This document shows, in pieces, positions 3,157 to 41,890 of a stretch of DNA of 64,000 bases. Position numbers and translations under genes: made by a program. The notes under the pieces were generated by a model, which did no database searches, was not told the DNA's origin, and was given only the letters and a program-made list of their open reading frames with translations. Position 1 is the stretch's first letter; every line of letters starts with the position of its first letter. Source of the DNA: Candidatus Magasanikiibacteriota bacterium (GTDB lineage Bacteria > Patescibacteriota > Patescibacteriia > Magasanikbacterales > UBA922); assembly GCA_002716765.1 (NCBI GenBank), contig PBBY01000016.1:47322-111321 (forward strand), in the 5' to 3' direction.

Positions 3157-3600
3157 CTATGCTAAAACTACACAGGTAACACGACACTGGATTTGTTCTA
3201 ATAGCGTAATTTTTACACTATGTGTTCCAGTAGACTTTATTGGATGAGGAAAAGTGACAGCACTTTCTAAAACCTTTACACCAAGTTGCGTGCTAATAGT
3301 GTCAACTATTTTTTTTGGCGTAATAGCGGCATAAAGTGTCCCCTGCTCATTAGCACTCTCTTTTATGGTGATGCTTTTTCCTTTTAACTGCGTGAGTATT
3401 TTTTTGGACTCTTTGCTTTTCTCCCTTTTTATTTTTTGTACCTTCTGTTCTTTTTGTGAAAGGTGTGTTACCACTGCTGCACTTGCTGTTTTTGCTAGTC
3501 CTTTTTTTATAAGGAAGTTTATAGCATACCCATCTGAAACGGTAACAACATCTCCTTTACTACCCGTTCCTTTTACTGATTGTGTAAGAATGACTCTCAT
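3157..3600 (-). CDS. rplI: 50S ribosomal protein L9
   Basis: MRVILTQSVKGTGSKGDVVTVSDGYAINFLIKKGLA is the canonical L9 N-domain. Start taken at the internal ATG (MRVIL) at 3600. Confidence 0.8.
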   Translation of the reverse strand: MRVILTQSVKGTGSKGDVVTVSDGYAINFLIKKGLAKTASAAVVTHLSQKEQKVQKIKREKSKESKKILTQLKGKSITIKESANEQGTLYAAITPKKIVDTISTQLGVKVLESAVTFPHPIKSTGTHSVKITLLEQIQCRVTCVVLA

Positions 3601-21636: not shown

Positions 21637-22325
21637 ATGGAAGATTTACCACACAATTCTGGGTTTTTACTTATAGACAAACCAAAAGACTGGACGAGCC
21701 ACGATGTTGTGGGTTATTTACGAAAAATAACCGGGATAAAAAAAATAGGCCACGCTGGCACACTCGATCCATTTGCCACAGGCCTGCTTATTGTTGGTGT
21801 TGGAAGAAGTGCAACAAAGCAACTCGATGATTTTAAAGGGTTACCAAAAACATATAATGCAATAATTCATCTTGGTGCCACTTCGGACACACAAGATTCC
21901 ACCGGAATAATAACAGAACAATCTAAATACACAATTCCAACACTTTCTGACATACAAAAAACGCTTCCTTCTTTTATTGGTAAACAAACACAAATACCAC
22001 CAATGCATAGCGCAAAAAAGTTAATGGACAAAAACTATACACCTTAGCAAGAAAAGGAATAGAAATAGAAAGAACACCACACGAGATTACTATTTATAAC
22101 ATTACTCAAGAAGAATATACTTTTCCCACGCTTACCATTACCGTGCATTGCTCAACTGGTACATACATTAGAACACTTGCACATGATATTGGTCAAAAAT
22201 TAACAACCGGCGCGTATTGCAAAGAACTAAGAAGAGTAAATATTGGGAAACATGACGTAGAAAAAGCGCAAAAGCCAAAAGATATAACAAAGGAAAATTG
22301 GCAAAAGTATATATTTCATATATAA
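21637..22325 (+). CDS. truB: tRNA pseudouridine(55) synthase TruB, reading frame interrupted
   Basis: N-part LLIDKPKDWTSHDVVGYLRKITGIKKIGHAGTLDPFATGLL has the catalytic Asp motif. The TruB continuation KVNGQKLYTLARKGIEIER..CSTGTYIRTLAHDIG is in the +2 frame after an A6 run at 22014-22019; inserting one A restores a roughly 229-aa TruB lacking a PUA domain. Confidence 0.75.
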
Positions 22326-22390
22326 AAAAATCCCCCGTATCGAGTACATCATAATAAATGACATAAACGACACGGGAGACGAAGTTAAAA
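22321..22390 (-). terminator. Stem-loop A1: 7-bp stem (CTCCCGT/ACGGGGG), ~40-nt conserved loop, then U-tract on the minus strand, at the 3' end of the 78-aa membrane gene
   Basis: Read on the minus strand: ctcccGTgtcg…gatACgggggattttttta. It is a paralog of A2. Confidence 0.55.
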
Positions 22391-22397
22391 GCGGTGT

Positions 22398-22634
22398 TTA
22401 TAGCCGGAAAAATTTCCAGACTACGATGCCTAGAACAACCCACCATCCTACAAATAGGTAAGTGGTGTAAATTACCACATACTTAAGGATGATTGGTTTA
22501 AAAGATCGCACCTCTTTTTTAACCATGCGCAGCCCTGCGTATGACGCATTTGTCACACGTGGGACCGTGGTTGAAATAGAGTGAAACCAAACACTCACCA
22601 CAAAACAAACGACAAATAAAACAGTGAAGACCAT
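22398..22634 (-). CDS. Small multi-pass membrane protein (paralog of the C-terminal half of 22807-23334)
   Basis: 78 aa with two hydrophobic helices. Preceded by SD AAAGGAG-9nt-ATG and a TTGACA-N18-TATACT promoter. Its 3' end abuts stem-loop A1. Confidence 0.45.
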   Translation of the reverse strand: MVFTVLFVVCFVVSVWFHSISTTVPRVTNASYAGLRMVKKEVRSFKPIILKYVVIYTTYLFVGWWVVLGIVVWKFFRL

Positions 22635-22688
22635 TTCACTTTACTCCTTTTTTTAGATTTATGGCTATAGTATATAACAAAAAATTAA

Positions 22689-22749
22689 TTTTTGTCAAGT
22701 CTATTAACACATTTGTTTATTTTTTAGCTTATTTTAGTTTATTTTAAAA
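22689..22749 (-). promoter_or_regulatory. Repeat B1: 61-nt exact copy containing the -35 TTGACA and AT-rich upstream region for the 78-aa gene (-10 TATACT at 18-nt spacing)
   Basis: Identical to 23389-23449. The minus strand reads …aatagacTTGACAaaa. Confidence 0.55.
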
Positions 22750-22750
22750 G

Positions 22751-22815
22751 CAAAAATCCCCCACATCGAGTACATCATAACTGACATTAACTACGTGGGA
22801 GACAAGTTATAGGAT
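22751..22815 (-). terminator. Stem-loop A2: same element with compensatory stem changes (CTCCCAC/GTGGGGG), overlapping the 3' end of the 176-aa membrane gene
   Basis: About 85% identical to A1. The two dinucleotide differences in the stem (GT to AC and AC to GT) are mutually compensatory. A U-tract follows on the minus strand. Confidence 0.55.
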
Positions 22816-23334
22816 ATTTTTAACCATACCAACAAACGTAGAAATTGCCTTCGAGATACTCAAGACACCAACAGAAAGCTGATATACTAACCAGGCACTA
22901 TAACTGAGTAAAACAGTAACAAAACAGCCCCATTTTACTACGATAAACGTGGTAATAGCAGAAAGAACTCTTTTGTGGCCAGGAATGAAGAATACCATCA
23001 TTCCAACCACTTTATATGCTCCAATCCACAGAAAGAGGGTGCAGCATAGCCCAACACCTATCCAAGGTAGTGGTCGACTCAACAATGCGCTAAGACCTAA
23101 GGTGGAAGGCCCATCACCCCAAAGGAAAGCTGTGACAACTCCCACAACGAGCCCCACAAACCAACTTGGAGAGCGACGAGCTCTTTTTGCTGCCCTAACC
23201 ATGATTCGCTGAATGCGCCGCTCTGACATCCACCACGTGTTCCAGGTCCACCAAGACAACACTTCAAGACAGGCCCAGATACCAATAATTTCCAAGCAGA
23301 AGCCGCCAATACTGGTAAAAAGTGAAATGATCAA
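22807..23334 (-). CDS. Multi-pass membrane protein, Trp-rich (LSWWTWNTWW), GC-rich coding sequence
   Basis: Start taken at TTG 23334, downstream of TTGACA-N17-TATTAT and SD AAGGAG. The longer ORF beginning with GTG at 23379 would include the -10 box. Four to five predicted TM helices. The C-terminal ~70 aa resemble the 78-aa neighbour (…AISTFVGMVKN vs …ASYAGLRMVKK). Confidence 0.5.
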   Translation of the reverse strand: MIISLFTSIGGFCLEIIGIWACLEVLSWWTWNTWWMSERRIQRIMVRAAKRARRSPSWFVGLVVGVVTAFLWGDGPSTLGLSALLSRPLPWIGVGLCCTLFLWIGAYKVVGMMVFFIPGHKRVLSAITTFIVVKWGCFVTVLLSYSAWLVYQLSVGVLSISKAISTFVGMVKNIL

Positions 23335-23388
23335 AATAACTCCTTTTTTTTGTATATTTTTAACAAGACATAATACCACTTTTTTCTT

Positions 23389-23449
23389 TTTTTGTCAAGT
23401 CTATTAACACATTTGTTTATTTTTTAGCTTATTTTAGTTTATTTTAAAA
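23389..23449 (-). promoter_or_regulatory. Repeat B2: 61-nt exact copy containing the -35 TTGACA for the 176-aa gene (TTGACA-N17-TATTAT)
   Basis: Identical to B1. It lies immediately downstream (minus strand) of the uvrA terminator. Confidence 0.55.
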
Positions 23450-23454
23450 ATAAA

Positions 23455-23488
23455 AACCCTCTTTATACTGTAAAGAGGGGTTTTTTTA
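23455..23488 (-). terminator. Rho-independent terminator downstream of uvrA (ccctcttta-tactg-taaagaggg with T/A runs on both sides)
   Basis: Perfect 9-bp stem and 5-nt loop, flanked by A-run and T-run. It can work in both directions. Confidence 0.7.
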
Positions 23489-23500
23489 TGGTGTGTGTAT

Positions 23501-26092
23501 TTATGGTAAGATTTTGCGTAAATACGTGCCAGTATGACTAAAACCACACCGCGCCACTTCTTCTGGTGTTCCTTCAATCACCACCTCCCCACCTTTATCT
23601 CCACCATCTGGCCCTAAGTCTATTATCCAATCCGCACATTTTATTACGTCCAAATTATGCTCAATAACCATAACAGTATTTCCCAGAGAAACGAGTCGGT
23701 CAATAACGGTTATTAATTTTTGTACATCTTCATAATGCAGTCCGGTTGTTGGCTCATCGAGTAAATAAAGTGTTTTAGTGGTATTTCTTTTTGCCAACTC
23801 TTTTGATAACTTAATTCTTTGTGCTTCTCCACCAGATAATGTTTTTGCCGATTGCCCAAGTGTTAAATATCCTAAACCAACTTGATGCAACATAGAAAGC
23901 TTATCTGAAATGGTGGGAATATCGGTAAAAAATTCTGCCGCTTCTTCTATGGTCATCTGTAATACTTCTGCGATATTCTTTTTATTGTAATACACTTGTA
24001 ATGTTTCTTTGTTAAATCTTGCACCGTTACACACATCACAAATAATTTCTACACTCGGCAAAAAGTGCATTTCTATTTCTAACATACCACGCCCTTCGCA
24101 ATGTTCGCATCTTCCGCCAGGCCTATTAAAACTAAAACGACCTTTTTTATATCCACGAATTCTTGCTTCTGGTGTTGCAGCAAAGATATCACGAATTCCA
24201 TCGTATGCTTTTGTGTATGTTGCAGGATTACTCCTAGGCGTTCTTCCAATTGCACTTTGATCAATGCGTATAATTTTATCTATATATTCAAGCCCTTTAA
24301 TCTGTTTGTGCGCGCCGATCGGTTTGTCTACATGATGCAGTTTATTTGCAATTGCGCGATGCACTATCTTATGCATAAACGTAGATTTTCCTGACCCAGA
24401 AACACCGGTTAAACACACAAAGCGGCGTAACGGAATGTTTACTCGTATATTTTTGAGATTATGCTCTGTTGCACCACTCACAACGATTTTTGGTGAATAC
24501 TTATCTACTTTTCTTCTTTTTTTTGGCAGCGCAATATGTTTTTCTCTGCGTAAATATTTTCCTGTTATTGATTGTTCCGGATCTCCTATTACCTTACAAT
24601 CGATATCTTCTATTTTTTTACTCTTCTTACCTTTTTTATGTGCATTAAGTAATGTATTTACTGGGCCAGAAAAAACAATATTTCCACCATGCACTCCTGC
24701 TCCCGGACCAATATCTACAATCCAATCACTAAGCAAAATAGTGTCTTCATCATGTTCCACCACAATAATAGTATTTCCTATATCACAAAGATTACGCAAG
24801 GTTTGAATAAGTTGATCATTATCTTTTTGATGCAAACCAATGGTTGGTTCATCTAAAACATACATTGCACCAACCAATTGCTGACCAACTTGTGATGCCA
24901 ATCTAATTCGCTGTGCCTCTCCTCCAGAAAGTGTTCCGGCACGTCTTTGGAGTGTGACATAATGTAATCCAACATTGAACAAAAACTGTATTCGATTTTG
25001 AATCTCTCGTAACGCTGCCGAAACTATATCTTGTTCCTGTTCTGAAAGTGTGTCTACTACGGTAGCAAAAAAAGTATGCGCTTCTTCAATAGTAAGACCT
25101 ACAATATCTGCAATATTTTTTTCTCCTATTTTTACACTTAACGCATGATCATTTAATCGTTTTCCATTACATGTCTTGCAAAGTTCTTCGCTAAATAATT
25201 CTGCGGTGCCAAGTCCGGTGCAATCTTTGCATTGACCATACGGGCTATTAAAGCTAAATAAGCGCGGCTCAATTTCTGGAAAACTATACCCATCTTTTGG
25301 ACATGAATATTCTGTGCTATACATTACCTCCTCTCCATTTGGAAATAAAACGGTGCACAAACCATTAGATAAATCTACCGCTGACTCAATTGCTTCTGCC
25401 AAACGCTGTTTCTCTCCGTTATCCATTTCTGCGGTAGTAATTGGTGGTGTGTCTATAACAATTTCAATGGTATGTTTTTTATTTTTTGATAATAGTATTT
25501 TTTCTCGTAAACTTTTCATTTTTCCATCAACCCGTACCTGTAAAAATCCAGCATTATACATATCATAAAGCATTTGATAGTACTCCCCTTTTCTTCCACG
25601 AACAACTGGAGCAAATATAGTACATGTCCCATCCTTTATTTTATTTTTAACCGTTGTTTTTAATGCTTTGATAATGTGTACATTCATTTCGTCCGTGGTC
25701 ATTTTTTCTATTTTTGTACCACAAACCGGACAGTGTGGTTTTCCAACTCTAGCAAAAAGGACGCGCAAATAATCATAAATTTCGGTAATTGTTGCAACCG
25801 TTGATCGTGGATTTGCACTATGCGCTTTTTGGTCGATTGAAATTCCCGGGGATAACCCTTCTATTTCATCCACGTCTGGTTTTTGCATGCCACCCAAAAA
25901 CTGCCTGGCATATGCCGAAAGACTTTCTACATATCGTCTTTGTCCTTCTGCAAAAATAGTATCAAAAGCAAGACTCGATTTTCCAGAGCCGGATAAGCCA
26001 GTAAAGACCACCATCTTGTTGCGTGGTAGTTCCACATCAATATTCTTTAAATTATGTTCGCGCGCACCTGTAATTTTTATTTTATCTTGCAT
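23501..26092 (-). CDS. uvrA: Excinuclease ABC subunit A
   Basis: Tandem ABC ATPase modules ([12 protein letters not shown].., [10 protein letters not shown]..), zinc-finger Cys clusters and the LSGGEAQR signature. 863 aa. Confidence 0.95.
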
Positions 26093-36706: not shown

Positions 36707-38473
36707 ATGGAAAAACGCTGGACAATACTAGAACCCCCGCCGCAATCTTTTTTTGATTCAAACCCAGAACAATCACGATTAGTGTTGACTTTACTATATA
36801 ACAGAGGAATACGGACACAAAAAGCAATCGATGAATTTTTAACACCAGAATATAGCAATGATGTACACGATCCTTTTTTGTTTCAAGATATGCAAAAAAC
36901 GGTAGACAGGTTATTTTTAGCTATTACACAGAACGAACACATTACCATTCATGGTGATTATGATGCGGACGGTGTTTCGGCTTCTGTTATCCTTACCGAT
37001 ACACTTACCGCACTTGGCGCAAAACATGTTGATGTATATTTACCACACAGAGAAACTGATGGGTACGGCCTAAATAAAAATACCATTAACTTTTTACATC
37101 AAAAAGGTACCAATATTATTATTACGTGTGATTGTGGTATAAGTAATGCTGCAGAAGTAGCTCATGCAAGAACAAAGAATATGGATGTTATAATTACTGA
37201 CCATCACAGTGTTCCGGAAATACTTCCAGAAGCATTTTCTATTATTCACCCAAAAGTACCAGACGAACCATATCCATGCAAAAACCTTGCTGGCGGTGCA
37301 GTGGCATTTAAACTTGCTCAAGGATTATTACACACCCATAAAAAAGATAATGACGTATTGCCAAACGGCGAAACACATGATGGATTCGAGAAATGGTTAT
37401 TAGACATGGTAGCAGTTGCCAGTGTTGCCGACATGGTTCCTCTGTTGGAAGAAACTAGAACCCTTACCAAATATGGCTTAATGGTATTAAACAAAACACG
37501 AAGATTGGGGTTAAAAAAACTCTATATAGAAACTTCCCTTTCCGACCCAGATGGCACTCTTCGAAATGAAATTGGCACAGAAACTATTGGTTTTAGAATT
37601 GCGCCACAAATTAATGCTGCCGGAAGGCTTGGTCATGCAAATACTGCATATGAACTACTTGTGGCAAAAAAAGGGACCGACGCAATAGATTTGGCTTTTG
37701 CGCTCAATGAACAAAATAACGAAAGACGCGCACTTACCATGCAATATGTTGAGGAAGCAGAAAATCAAATCGCTAACCAAACAAAAGACCTCCCGGTTAT
37801 TTTTGTGTACAGCGATAATTGGAATACCGGAATTATAGGACTCATTGCCGGAAGAATAAAAGAAAAGTATCAAAAACCAACAATCGCAATGGCACCAAAA
37901 AAAGGAGAGATTACCGGATCTGGTCGAAGCATAGACGGATTTAATTTAATAGAAGCGTTGCAAGAAAATCCAGAATTTTTTGCAAAATTTGGAGGCCATC
38001 CAATGGCTTGTGGATTTAGTTTAGCAGAACCAAACATAAAAGAAGCCATGCAAGAGGCTTTGTGTAACACCTATACCAAAAAAACGAAAAACATAGACAT
38101 GGCACCGACACTTTCCATAGACAAAGAAATAACACTAGAAGAAGTAACGTGGAATGCGCTTGAAGCAATAGAACAATGCAAACCATTTGGGCAAAACAAT
38201 CCTAAACCACTCTTTGTCGCAAAAGGAGTAACCGTTGTTAAGGTGGACAAAATGGGAAAAGATAAGTCTCATATACGACTTCAGTTGACACATACCACAA
38301 ATGTTATTAAAAAAGCGGTAGGATGGCAAATGTGTGGCCCTTTAGCAGAAAAAGATTGGGGTACACTCCTTTCACCAAACGATAAAATAGACATTGTTTT
38401 TGATATTGGAATAAATGAGTGGAACGGGAACCGAGAAATACAAATTACCCTAAAAGATATTCACAAAATATAA
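36707..38473 (+). CDS. recJ: Single-stranded-DNA-specific exonuclease RecJ
   Basis: DHH motifs (HGDYDADGVSA, ITDHH) and a DHHA1 region (GGHPMACG). Confidence 0.85.
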   Translation: MEKRWTILEPPPQSFFDSNPEQSRLVLTLLYNRGIRTQKAIDEFLTPEYSNDVHDPFLFQDMQKTVDRLFLAITQNEHITIHGDYDADGVSASVILTDTLTALGAKHVDVYLPHRETDGYGLNKNTINFLHQKGTNIIITCDCGISNAAEVAHARTKNMDVIITDHHSVPEILPEAFSIIHPKVPDEPYPCKNLAGGAVAFKLAQGLLHTHKKDNDVLPNGETHDGFEKWLLDMVAVASVADMVPLLEETRTLTKYGLMVLNKTRRLGLKKLYIETSLSDPDGTLRNEIGTETIGFRIAPQINAAGRLGHANTAYELLVAKKGTDAIDLAFALNEQNNERRALTMQYVEEAENQIANQTKDLPVIFVYSDNWNTGIIGLIAGRIKEKYQKPTIAMAPKKGEITGSGRSIDGFNLIEALQENPEFFAKFGGHPMACGFSLAEPNIKEAMQEALCNTYTKKTKNIDMAPTLSIDKEITLEEVTWNALEAIEQCKPFGQNNPKPLFVAKGVTVVKVDKMGKDKSHIRLQLTHTTNVIKKAVGWQMCGPLAEKDWGTLLSPNDKIDIVFDIGINEWNGNREIQITLKDIHKI

Positions 38474-41504: not shown

Positions 41505-41860
41505 CTTGGTTTTACCACAATTTCATGTTTTTGTCAAGTGTTGAGCCAAAAATACGTACAATGACCCAAAAAAACAAAAACCCACCTGCCGGAGAGTATT
41601 CTGTATATTTTAAGTAAAATTATCTATATACCATACAACTATGATATAGAAATAACTTACTCCCACACATTATCTTGCAATCTAGTTGTTAGATATGCTT
41701 CTTGTAATGGTGAGAGGATTGGGTTAAGGAACGTAGGTTAGGGGTGTAGGTCTACCGGAAGGAGAGTCGTTGGGCGCTGGTGTTCTGATCTTCTTATCTT
41801 CTTAACTCAACCACCTTCACACCAATATCCGGGTCGATCCAAGATGGACAGGTATATACC

Positions 41861-41890
41861 TTTTTTCCTCCTTTTTTTGCCACACGACGA
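41861..41890 (-). repeat. 30-nt exact copy of the first 10 codons (plus the internal AAAGGAGG) of the glycosyltransferase gene at 1393-1422
   Basis: atataccttttttcctcctttttttgcca occurs at 1393-1422 and 41861-41890. On the minus strand it reads tggcaaaaaaaggaggaaaaaaggtatat, which translates to (M)AKKGGKKVY. Confidence 0.8.

Follow-up and report, generated by a model that had tools for sequence, protein, structure and literature searches.

Two related stem-loops, A1 and A2, lie on the minus strand at the 3' ends of two small genes in a 64-kb stretch of DNA from Candidatus Magasanikiibacteriota bacterium (contig PBBY01000016.1, positions 47,322 to 111,321; the whole of this stretch is called the window below). 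Do they carry a conserved loop with a function of its own, or do they simply end the transcripts of these genes? The initial annotation took the first view and described a 7-bp stem that closes a nearly invariant loop of about 40 nucleotides (nt). The related elements, the stem arms, the exchange of base pairs between them, the U-tract and the strand were all recovered in our analysis, but the 7-bp stem with its invariant loop was not. As to interpretation, a minus-strand RNA with compensatory stem changes and a maintained structure was retained, while the conserved loop and its special regulatory role were abandoned. We conclude that A1 and A2 are very probably plain Rho-independent (intrinsic) terminators and copies of one module, T. 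This module has a 5' flank of the CTTTTAAC type, then a long bipartite hairpin that is G/C-rich at its base, and finally a U-tract.

Fold and pairing of A1 and A2

The positions of the two elements and of their parts are the following.

22319-22393, minus strand: A1, putative terminator module T of gene2, located by its fold and a covariance-model hit
22384-22391, minus strand: 5' flank of A1, CTTTTAAC
22330-22380, minus strand: hairpin of A1
22368-22380 with 22330-22342, minus strand: lower stem of A1
22358-22365 with 22345-22352, minus strand: upper stem of A1
22353-22357, minus strand: apical loop of A1
22324-22330, minus strand: U-tract of A1
22745-22816, minus strand: A2, putative terminator module T of gene1, located by its fold and a covariance-model hit
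22756-22803, minus strand: hairpin of A2
22752-22756, minus strand: U5 of A2, followed by GCUUUU

On the minus strand, A1 reads CGUCUCCCGUGUCGUUUAUGUCAUUUAUUAUGAUGUACUCGAUACGGGGGAUUUUUUU and A2 reads UUGUCUCCCACGUAGUUAAUGUCAGUUAUGAUGUACUCGAUGUGGGGGAUUUUUGCUUUU. The two differ by seven substitutions and a 3-nt indel; they were aligned by BLAST at 82% identity over 62 columns (E 8e-10) and, when counted from the alignment, were identical at 44 of 51 ungapped positions (86%), in agreement with the figure of about 85% first given for them. A covariance model built from four copies scored 88.8 bits on A1 and on A2 alike. By both the BLAST E value and the covariance-model score, the similarity is far beyond chance. 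The arms had been quoted correctly (CTCCCGT/ACGGGGG in A1 and CTCCCAC/GTGGGGG in A2), and the GU/AC to AC/GU swap between them is genuine, two adjacent pairs being exchanged with pairing retained.

Folding of the minus strand with ViennaRNA showed that A1 forms a lower helix of 13 bp and an upper helix of 8 bp, separated by a 2x2 internal loop and capped by 5 apical nt (-29.6 kcal/mol, z -8.2, 82% of the ensemble), while A2 has helices of 11 bp and 6 bp on either side of a 5x5 internal loop, with a loop of 4 nt at the top (-20.6 kcal/mol, z -4.0). None of 200 shuffles folded as stably. The same two-helix hairpin was predicted independently by RNAalifold from four copies, and the base of both hairpins is G/C-rich (CCC/GGGGG). 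Among all sites in the window where a hairpin is followed by a T-run, A1 ranked first in stability and A2 third. The folds of the plus strand were weaker, at -14.1 kcal/mol for A1 and -8.6 kcal/mol for A2, because five G-U pairs turn into C-A mismatches there, and that strand has no U-tract. The minus strand had thus been named correctly as the folding strand, and a U-tract does follow each element on it (U7 for A1 and U5GCU4 for A2).

Folding both copies, a check that the initial annotation itself had proposed, kept the stem and removed the open loop. The 7-bp arms are separated by 33 nt (A1) or 30 nt (A2) rather than about 40 nt, and this interval is itself base-paired: the lower stem runs on past the 7 bp, reaching 13 bp and 11 bp respectively, and the upper helix of 8 bp or 6 bp sits inside what had been drawn as a loop, which leaves only 5 or 4 nt unpaired at the apex. 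Nor is the interval nearly invariant, as three substitutions and the 3-nt indel separate its two copies. The supposed loop, held to exceed the needs of a plain terminator, is an extension of the terminator hairpin and forms the upper two-thirds of one long hairpin. A coding origin of the loop sequence, named in the initial annotation as a finding that would overturn its view, was not upheld. A1 is covered by a single open reading frame (ORF; 22168-22446, minus strand), which runs antisense to truB and seems spurious, and A2 lies outside any ORF except for the last codons of gene1; a coding explanation was rejected for both elements.

To compare pairing across copies, loci at graded distances from the window (numbered with the prefix L) were recovered by way of gene1 and TruB homologues, and eight long copies, A1, A2, L025, L034_mid, L034_down, L035_a, L035_b and L035_c, were aligned. 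Long-form terminators were found in contigs whose TruB falls in the 90%-identity cluster of the window's TruB; the copy in L016 is the same as L035_c, and L025 is close to L034_down, with one A-to-G difference in the upper helix. In this alignment, 96.7% of the cells of the 13+8 bp structure were paired, mostly by means of G-U wobbles, and this value fell to 29-55% in control alignments with slid partner columns. Only 4 of 500 column shuffles reached the observed pairing or covariation score. The structure is therefore maintained, as the initial annotation had held.

Eight of the 13 lower-stem pairs vary and are still paired. Pair 21-57 is G-U, A-U or G-C, and pair 22-56 is C-G or U-A; four pairs are C-G in some copies and U-G in others, and one further pair is either G-C or G-U. 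At the two positions that are swapped between A1 and A2, L016 has G-U and C-G, which is a wobble intermediate between the two states. The pairing pattern agrees with a helix formed in minus-strand RNA.

The upper helix and the search for further copies

Comparison of the upper part of the hairpin among relatives bears on the proposal that T is a regulatory element of the 3' untranslated region (UTR) in which a conserved single-stranded loop of about 40 nt binds a protein or an RNA, as a processing site or a toxin-antitoxin-like partner would. The 3' half of the interval, UUAUGAUGUACUCGAU, is indeed identical in A1, A2, L035_c/L016 and L034_mid, and both cargo genes encode small hydrophobic proteins that superficially resemble type I toxins. 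However, the interval is paired in the minimum-free-energy folds and in the consensus fold, and its sequence does not persist. In L025 and L034_down, a 4-bp helix, CACU/AGUG (or GGUG), stands in for AUGUCA...UGAUGU, and the motif GAUGUACUCGAU has given way to AGUGUAUGCGAU or GGUGUAUGCGAU; L035_a and L035_b have CUUGAA instead of CUCGAU; and the motif is absent from the short forms of L020, L026 and L033. The upper part being replaced or missing in relatives, there is no conserved single-stranded binding platform. A consensus scan found no plus-strand promoter between 22321 and 22815, and hence no antisense promoter inside the elements; an antisense RNA could still come from truB read-through. 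No Rfam family matched A1 or A2. The cargo proteins, of 78-175 amino acids (aa) and with at least two hydrophobic segments by eye, are unlike type I toxins. A binding loop, whether as a toxin-antitoxin RNA partner or as a processing site, is thus very unlikely.

The short forms provide a second comparison. L020, L026 and L033 have, at the same positions, a short canonical terminator with 9-11 bp and a 4-nt loop, of the form CCCUCAUGUC-GUAU-GAYGUGGGGG followed by U6-7 (-10.8 to -17.5 kcal/mol). Its 3' arm, GAUGUGGGGG with U7, is identical in sequence to the base of the long form. The two forms occur in close relatives, since the TruB of L033 belongs to the same 90%-identity cluster as that of L025, and the latter is 96% identical to the intact TruB of the window (taken from L023). 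The long form looks like a short terminator that has gained about 27 additional nt, self-complementary in sequence, in its apical loop.

Searches for known families and for further copies gave little beyond A1 and A2. The whole window gave no match in Rfam 15 at the gathering threshold, and a permissive scan of 22200-23600 (E up to 10) gave only sub-threshold, terminator-like hits on the uvrA terminator; at the same limit, the sole overlap with A1 or A2 was snoR136 (16.9 bits, E = 10). A search for tRNA and tmRNA genes found none. The covariance model recovered only A1 and A2 from the window. The 14-nt core motif, with up to three mismatches, occurred at chance frequency apart from A1 and A2, and its 1-mismatch match at 36858 lies within a coding region and lacks a hairpin. 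An exact-pattern scan of 596 Gb of genomes returned nine chance hits in unrelated high-GC taxa, and one of a metagenome collection returned five chance hits and a single true relative, L016. With no Rfam match, no further copies in the window and none in the two collections outside the orthologous locus, T does not belong to a described RNA family and, over the sequence covered, is not a dispersed repeat.

These results weigh directly on the idea that a mobile palindromic repeat of the REP/BIME, ERIC, Correia or MITE kind has landed twice at this locus. Like REP/BIME, ERIC and Correia elements, which can act as terminators or mRNA stabilisers, T is a repeated imperfect palindrome in 3' untranslated regions that folds in the transcript. 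It is present in more than one copy at gene 3' ends, and the long form resembles a palindromic insertion of about 27 nt into the loop of the short form. Unlike these elements, T is confined to one small island, from uvrA (or a glycosyltransferase gene) to truB, and each T is tied to a cassette that has its own promoter, with no associated transposase seen. The covariance model found no third copy in 64 kb, the core motif has no further copy in a hairpin context, the only hit of the large scans other than chance hits was the orthologous locus L016, and reading of the sequence showed no terminal inverted repeats or target duplications. We regard such a repeat as extremely improbable.

Predicted transcription units between uvrA and truB

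The minus-strand order of the island is uvrA, a short terminator, a repeat called R, gene1, A2, R, gene2 and A1, followed by the end of the convergent truB. The stop codon of uvrA is at 23501-23503.

23457-23479, minus strand: short terminator of uvrA, with a 9-10 bp stem and a 3-5 nt loop (-13.1 kcal/mol)
23389-23459, minus strand: R copy 1, upstream of gene1, with -35 TTGACA at 23393-23398 and -10 TG-n-TATTAT at 23370-23375
22807-23334, minus strand: gene1, encoding a multi-pass membrane protein of 175 aa; the start codon is TTG, and AGGAG lies 5 nt upstream
22689-22759, minus strand: R copy 2, predicted to drive gene2, with -35 TTGACA at 22693-22698 and -10 TATACT at 22669-22674
22398-22634, minus strand: gene2, encoding a 78-aa protein with two hydrophobic segments (by eye), with an ATG start and AAGGAG 9 nt upstream
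22143-22325, plus strand: 3' part of the convergent truB (ORF), with its stop in the A-run complementary to the U-tract of A1

The R repeat is 71 nt long and its two copies, which are 96% identical, each end in TTGACA; the -10 box of copy 2 (TATACT) lies just outside the repeat. The distance between the -35 and -10 boxes is 17 nt for the gene1 promoter and 18 nt for the gene2 promoter, and R copy 2 scored 11 of 12 in the promoter scan. The A-tract units of R (AAAATAAAC, TAAAATAAGC and TAAAAAATAAAC) are phased by about 10 nt, and R is conserved upstream of every cassette in relatives (L020, L026, L027 and L033-L035); it possibly acts as curved DNA, as an UP-like element or as the binding site of a regulator. 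Together with the ribosome-binding sites, these promoters would define two monocistronic units, each closed by a hairpin and a U-tract.

A1 and A2 have the features by which Rho-independent terminators are recognized in TransTermHP, ARNold and RNIE models. Both lie on the coding strand directly past a stop codon, the hairpin of A2 starting 3 nt past the gene1 stop (22807-22809) and that of A1 beginning 17 nt past the gene2 stop (22398-22400). Both have a stable, strand-specific fold in which a G/C-rich stem base abuts 5-7 U, with at least five U directly 3', and the stem has been kept on the transcribed strand by compensatory and wobble changes. The U-tract of A1 overlaps the convergent truB stop codon (22323-22325), which is itself within the plus-strand A-run. 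The uvrA terminator, whose sequence is unrelated to A1 and A2, shows the ordinary terminator form of this genome. A sub-threshold Rfam match to RefA9, an Enterococcus small RNA, covered this terminator (23454-23517, 32.5 bits against a gathering threshold of 49) and most likely reflects generic terminator likeness. A literature search found no description of intrinsic terminators in Patescibacteria.

On this interpretation as terminators, RNA polymerase would start at each TTGACA-N17/18-TATAxT promoter and transcribe one small gene and then the hairpin. The helix would close at its GGGGG/CCC base while the active site contains a weak rU:dA hybrid; release of the transcript would follow. A1 would also stop gene2 transcription from running antisense into truB, and would insulate truB in this way. 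Some leak through A2 into gene2 is probable, given its weaker hairpin and interrupted U-tract, and the stable hairpin probably also protects the 3' end of the mRNA.

Several points weigh against A1 and A2 being plain terminators. Termination as such is deduced from sequence features. The bipartite hairpin of 51 nt and 21 bp exceeds the length of a typical intrinsic terminator, and the U-tract of A2 is both short and broken up. A terminator model has no need of the conserved 5' flank, (C)TCTTTTAAC, which is rich in pyrimidines. The covariation statistics come from eight related copies, with full double substitutions in one pair only; with so few copies, all of them related, and with mostly one-sided wobble changes, these statistics are modest. 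The stem of an intrinsic terminator is usually 5-14 bp, and the other terminators of the window served for comparison as well. Unlike canonical terminators, A1 and A2 have a hairpin of 48-51 nt with two helices (13+8 or 11+6 bp) around an internal loop, an upper helix that is A/U- and G-U-rich, and a conserved CTTTTAAC flank ahead of the hairpin.

The unusual length and stability of the helix, together with the weak U-tract of A2, could be taken to mean that the hairpin serves to stabilise the 3' end, or as a processing hairpin of the RNase III type, without terminating transcription itself. However, the G/C-rich base abuts the U-tract in all eight long copies and in all short copies, each with a T5-7 run, and this is the defining geometry of a terminator. 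The short forms, moreover, are canonical terminators at the same positions. To a hairpin that only stabilises or processes the transcript we assign hardly any probability.

Two side observations concern the neighbouring sequence and the assembly. The truB gene (21637-22325) is broken into two ORFs in the window, where an A-run at about 22015-22020 is 1 nt shorter than in relatives. The window comes from a metagenome-assembled genome of an uncultured marine bacterium (Patescibacteria). Tara Oceans contigs match it at 99.9-100% identity, and one Tara scaffold (L023), otherwise identical, includes the additional A and encodes a complete TruB of 229 aa. The NCBI record has a 136-aa TruB stub annotated as a hypothetical protein (MBH41682.1), and the split is probably a homopolymer assembly error. 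Elsewhere in the window, an exact 29-nt repeat (ATATACCTTTTTTCCTCCTTTTTTTGCCA) is found at 1393-1421 and 41854-41882; on the minus strand, it resembles a ribosome-binding-site or 5'-UTR region and may be a common leader of two genes.

An island of variable cassettes

The flank, hairpin and U-tract of T recur, together with R, around every small gene of the island in all relatives. The arrangements of four of these are given below.

L026: 117-aa gene, another terminator, R, 108-aa gene, T, R, gene1, T, truB
L035: further sequence, X1, T, R, X1, T, R, X2, T, truB
L034: uvrA, terminator, R, X2, T, R, gene2', T, truB
L033: R, gene1 (L020 type), short T, truB

In the X1-X1-X2 array of L035, R stands before X1 and X2, and T stands after each gene. 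Comparison of L034 with the window showed 88% identity from ppa to 22823, across truB, A1, gene2, R and A2, and 95% identity again from 23389 (R) into uvrA; the stretch in between, which carries gene1 (22824-23388 in the window), is replaced between R and T by X2, a 107-aa gene (L034 2604-2984). Comparison of the window with L016/L035 showed that the homology stops exactly at the 5' edge of T, at 22391. At least four different sequences occur 5' of the truB-proximal T among relatives, and three of these (those of the window, L016/L035 and L033) are in contigs of one TruB 90%-identity cluster. L025 and L034 carry gene2', as the window carries gene2. Many assemblies break at R or T.

A1 and A2 resemble each other because each gene sits in a duplicated and exchanged R-gene-T cassette. 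Their similarity reflects the common descent of cassette boundaries, and not selection for a binding site or an additional function of the loop. The unit of R, gene and T would have been duplicated and exchanged within the island by homologous recombination, which explains cassette exchange most simply.

The products of these cassettes belong to small orphan families. The proteins of gene2, gene2', X1, X2 and the 108-aa gene form one small family, with two hydrophobic segments and the motif Y..IYT.Y.FGGWW. An identical gene2 protein is found on four marine contigs and a 78-aa homologue in L034, and database searches with gene2 returned no homologue other than itself. Gene callers missed both the 78-aa gene2 (22398-22634; L023) and its L034 homologue (2179-2415) on several contigs, and the gene2/X1/X2 family is therefore under-represented in protein databases. 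The gene1 protein has only three clusters among 5.8 billion proteins, and an exhaustive HMMER search of 1.84 billion representatives gave only five hits. In every relative that has it (L020, L026, L027 and L033), gene1 is convergent to truB. It is a lineage-restricted orphan family separate from that of gene2; a paralogous origin of the two genes was rejected, BLASTP showing no similarity between them (E 2.6). No family was found in Pfam, NCBIfam, PHROG or PADLOC for gene1 or for the other cargo proteins.

Some features of individual loci are recorded here as side observations. In a 717-bp contig (L013, ERZ842402), the end of uvrA is joined directly to gene2 across the 71-nt repeat, and gene1 and A2 are missing, either through a real deletion in a variant or through collapse of the assembly at the repeat. 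The arrangement of the window is present in three long contigs with identical uvrA, and an exact uvrA look-up for alternative arrangements returned only that of the window itself. Two T copies of L035 (at about 2851-2885 and 3373-3405, minus-strand sense) have a (CTTT)6-7 microsatellite directly 5' of the TTTTAAC flank; the two microsatellites differ by one repeat unit, and it is there that the CTTTTAAC flank expands. The 117-aa gene (L026 4970-5323, L027 4467-4820) encodes a highly conserved, coiled-coil-like soluble protein and stands at the far end of the island, beside a GT4 glycosyltransferase gene, in relatives that have no uvrA there.

The exchange of cassettes suggests that the hairpins could be primarily recombination sites, or homology arms bounding exchangeable cassettes in an integrase-free, attC-like system, with termination a secondary effect. 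The homology that ends exactly at the edge of T at 22391, the clean replacement of gene1 by X2 between R and T in L034, the at least four sequences that alternate 5' of the truB-proximal T and the many assembly breaks at T or R all point in this direction. As in integron arrays, an imperfect palindrome stands at the end of each small ORF, like an attC site; the ORFs vary in content, and close relatives differ in the cassettes that they carry. The details differ, however. Reading for the integron core sites R'' (RYYYAAC) and R' (GTTRRRY) found neither, as the 5' flank of T is (C)TTTTAAC or CTATAAC, whose first base is no purine, and its 3' end is GGGGGAUUUUU and not GTTRRRY. No integrase was identified in the window, where no exhaustive search for one was made. 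The cassettes of integrons usually have no promoter of their own, whereas every cassette here has its own sigma-70-type promoter module. The U-tract geometry of a terminator and the strand specificity that depends on G-U pairs point to a function in RNA, and homologous recombination needs only sequence identity and no hairpin. A primary role of the hairpins in recombination is therefore unlikely; a recombination role is compatible with that of a terminator and does not replace it. As readings of A1 and A2, attC sites and REP elements were considered and rejected, and a type I toxin-antitoxin system was set aside as improbable.

R and T may be mere passengers of tandem duplication, or they may be kept as homology arms for cassette exchange; the long hairpin and the conserved flank might be kept partly to serve this exchange or to insulate the cassettes. 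We propose tentatively, as a possibility rather than the expected outcome, that in marine Candidatus Magasanikbacteria R and T together delimit, as conserved boundaries, the cassettes of an array that has no integrase. Homologous recombination at R and T would duplicate and delete small genes for orphan membrane proteins (gene1 and the members of the gene2/X1/X2/108-aa family) and would swap them between strains that occur together.

As an RNA element, T is of little importance: it is an unusually long intrinsic terminator whose apparent conserved loop vanishes on folding, and it is a useful caution where hairpins are read by eye. The locus shows that a streamlined genome of the candidate phyla radiation carries canonical sigma-70-like promoter and hairpin-plus-U terminator sequences. 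The island from uvrA to truB is made of promoter-gene-terminator cassettes whose cargo differs between close relatives, and it includes several orphan membrane-protein genes that gene callers have missed. If this turnover is real and adaptive, it would suggest strain-level variation of membrane proteins in marine Magasanikbacteria, and cassette exchange, if true, would give an episymbiotic lineage strain-level variation in its cell-surface or membrane proteins.

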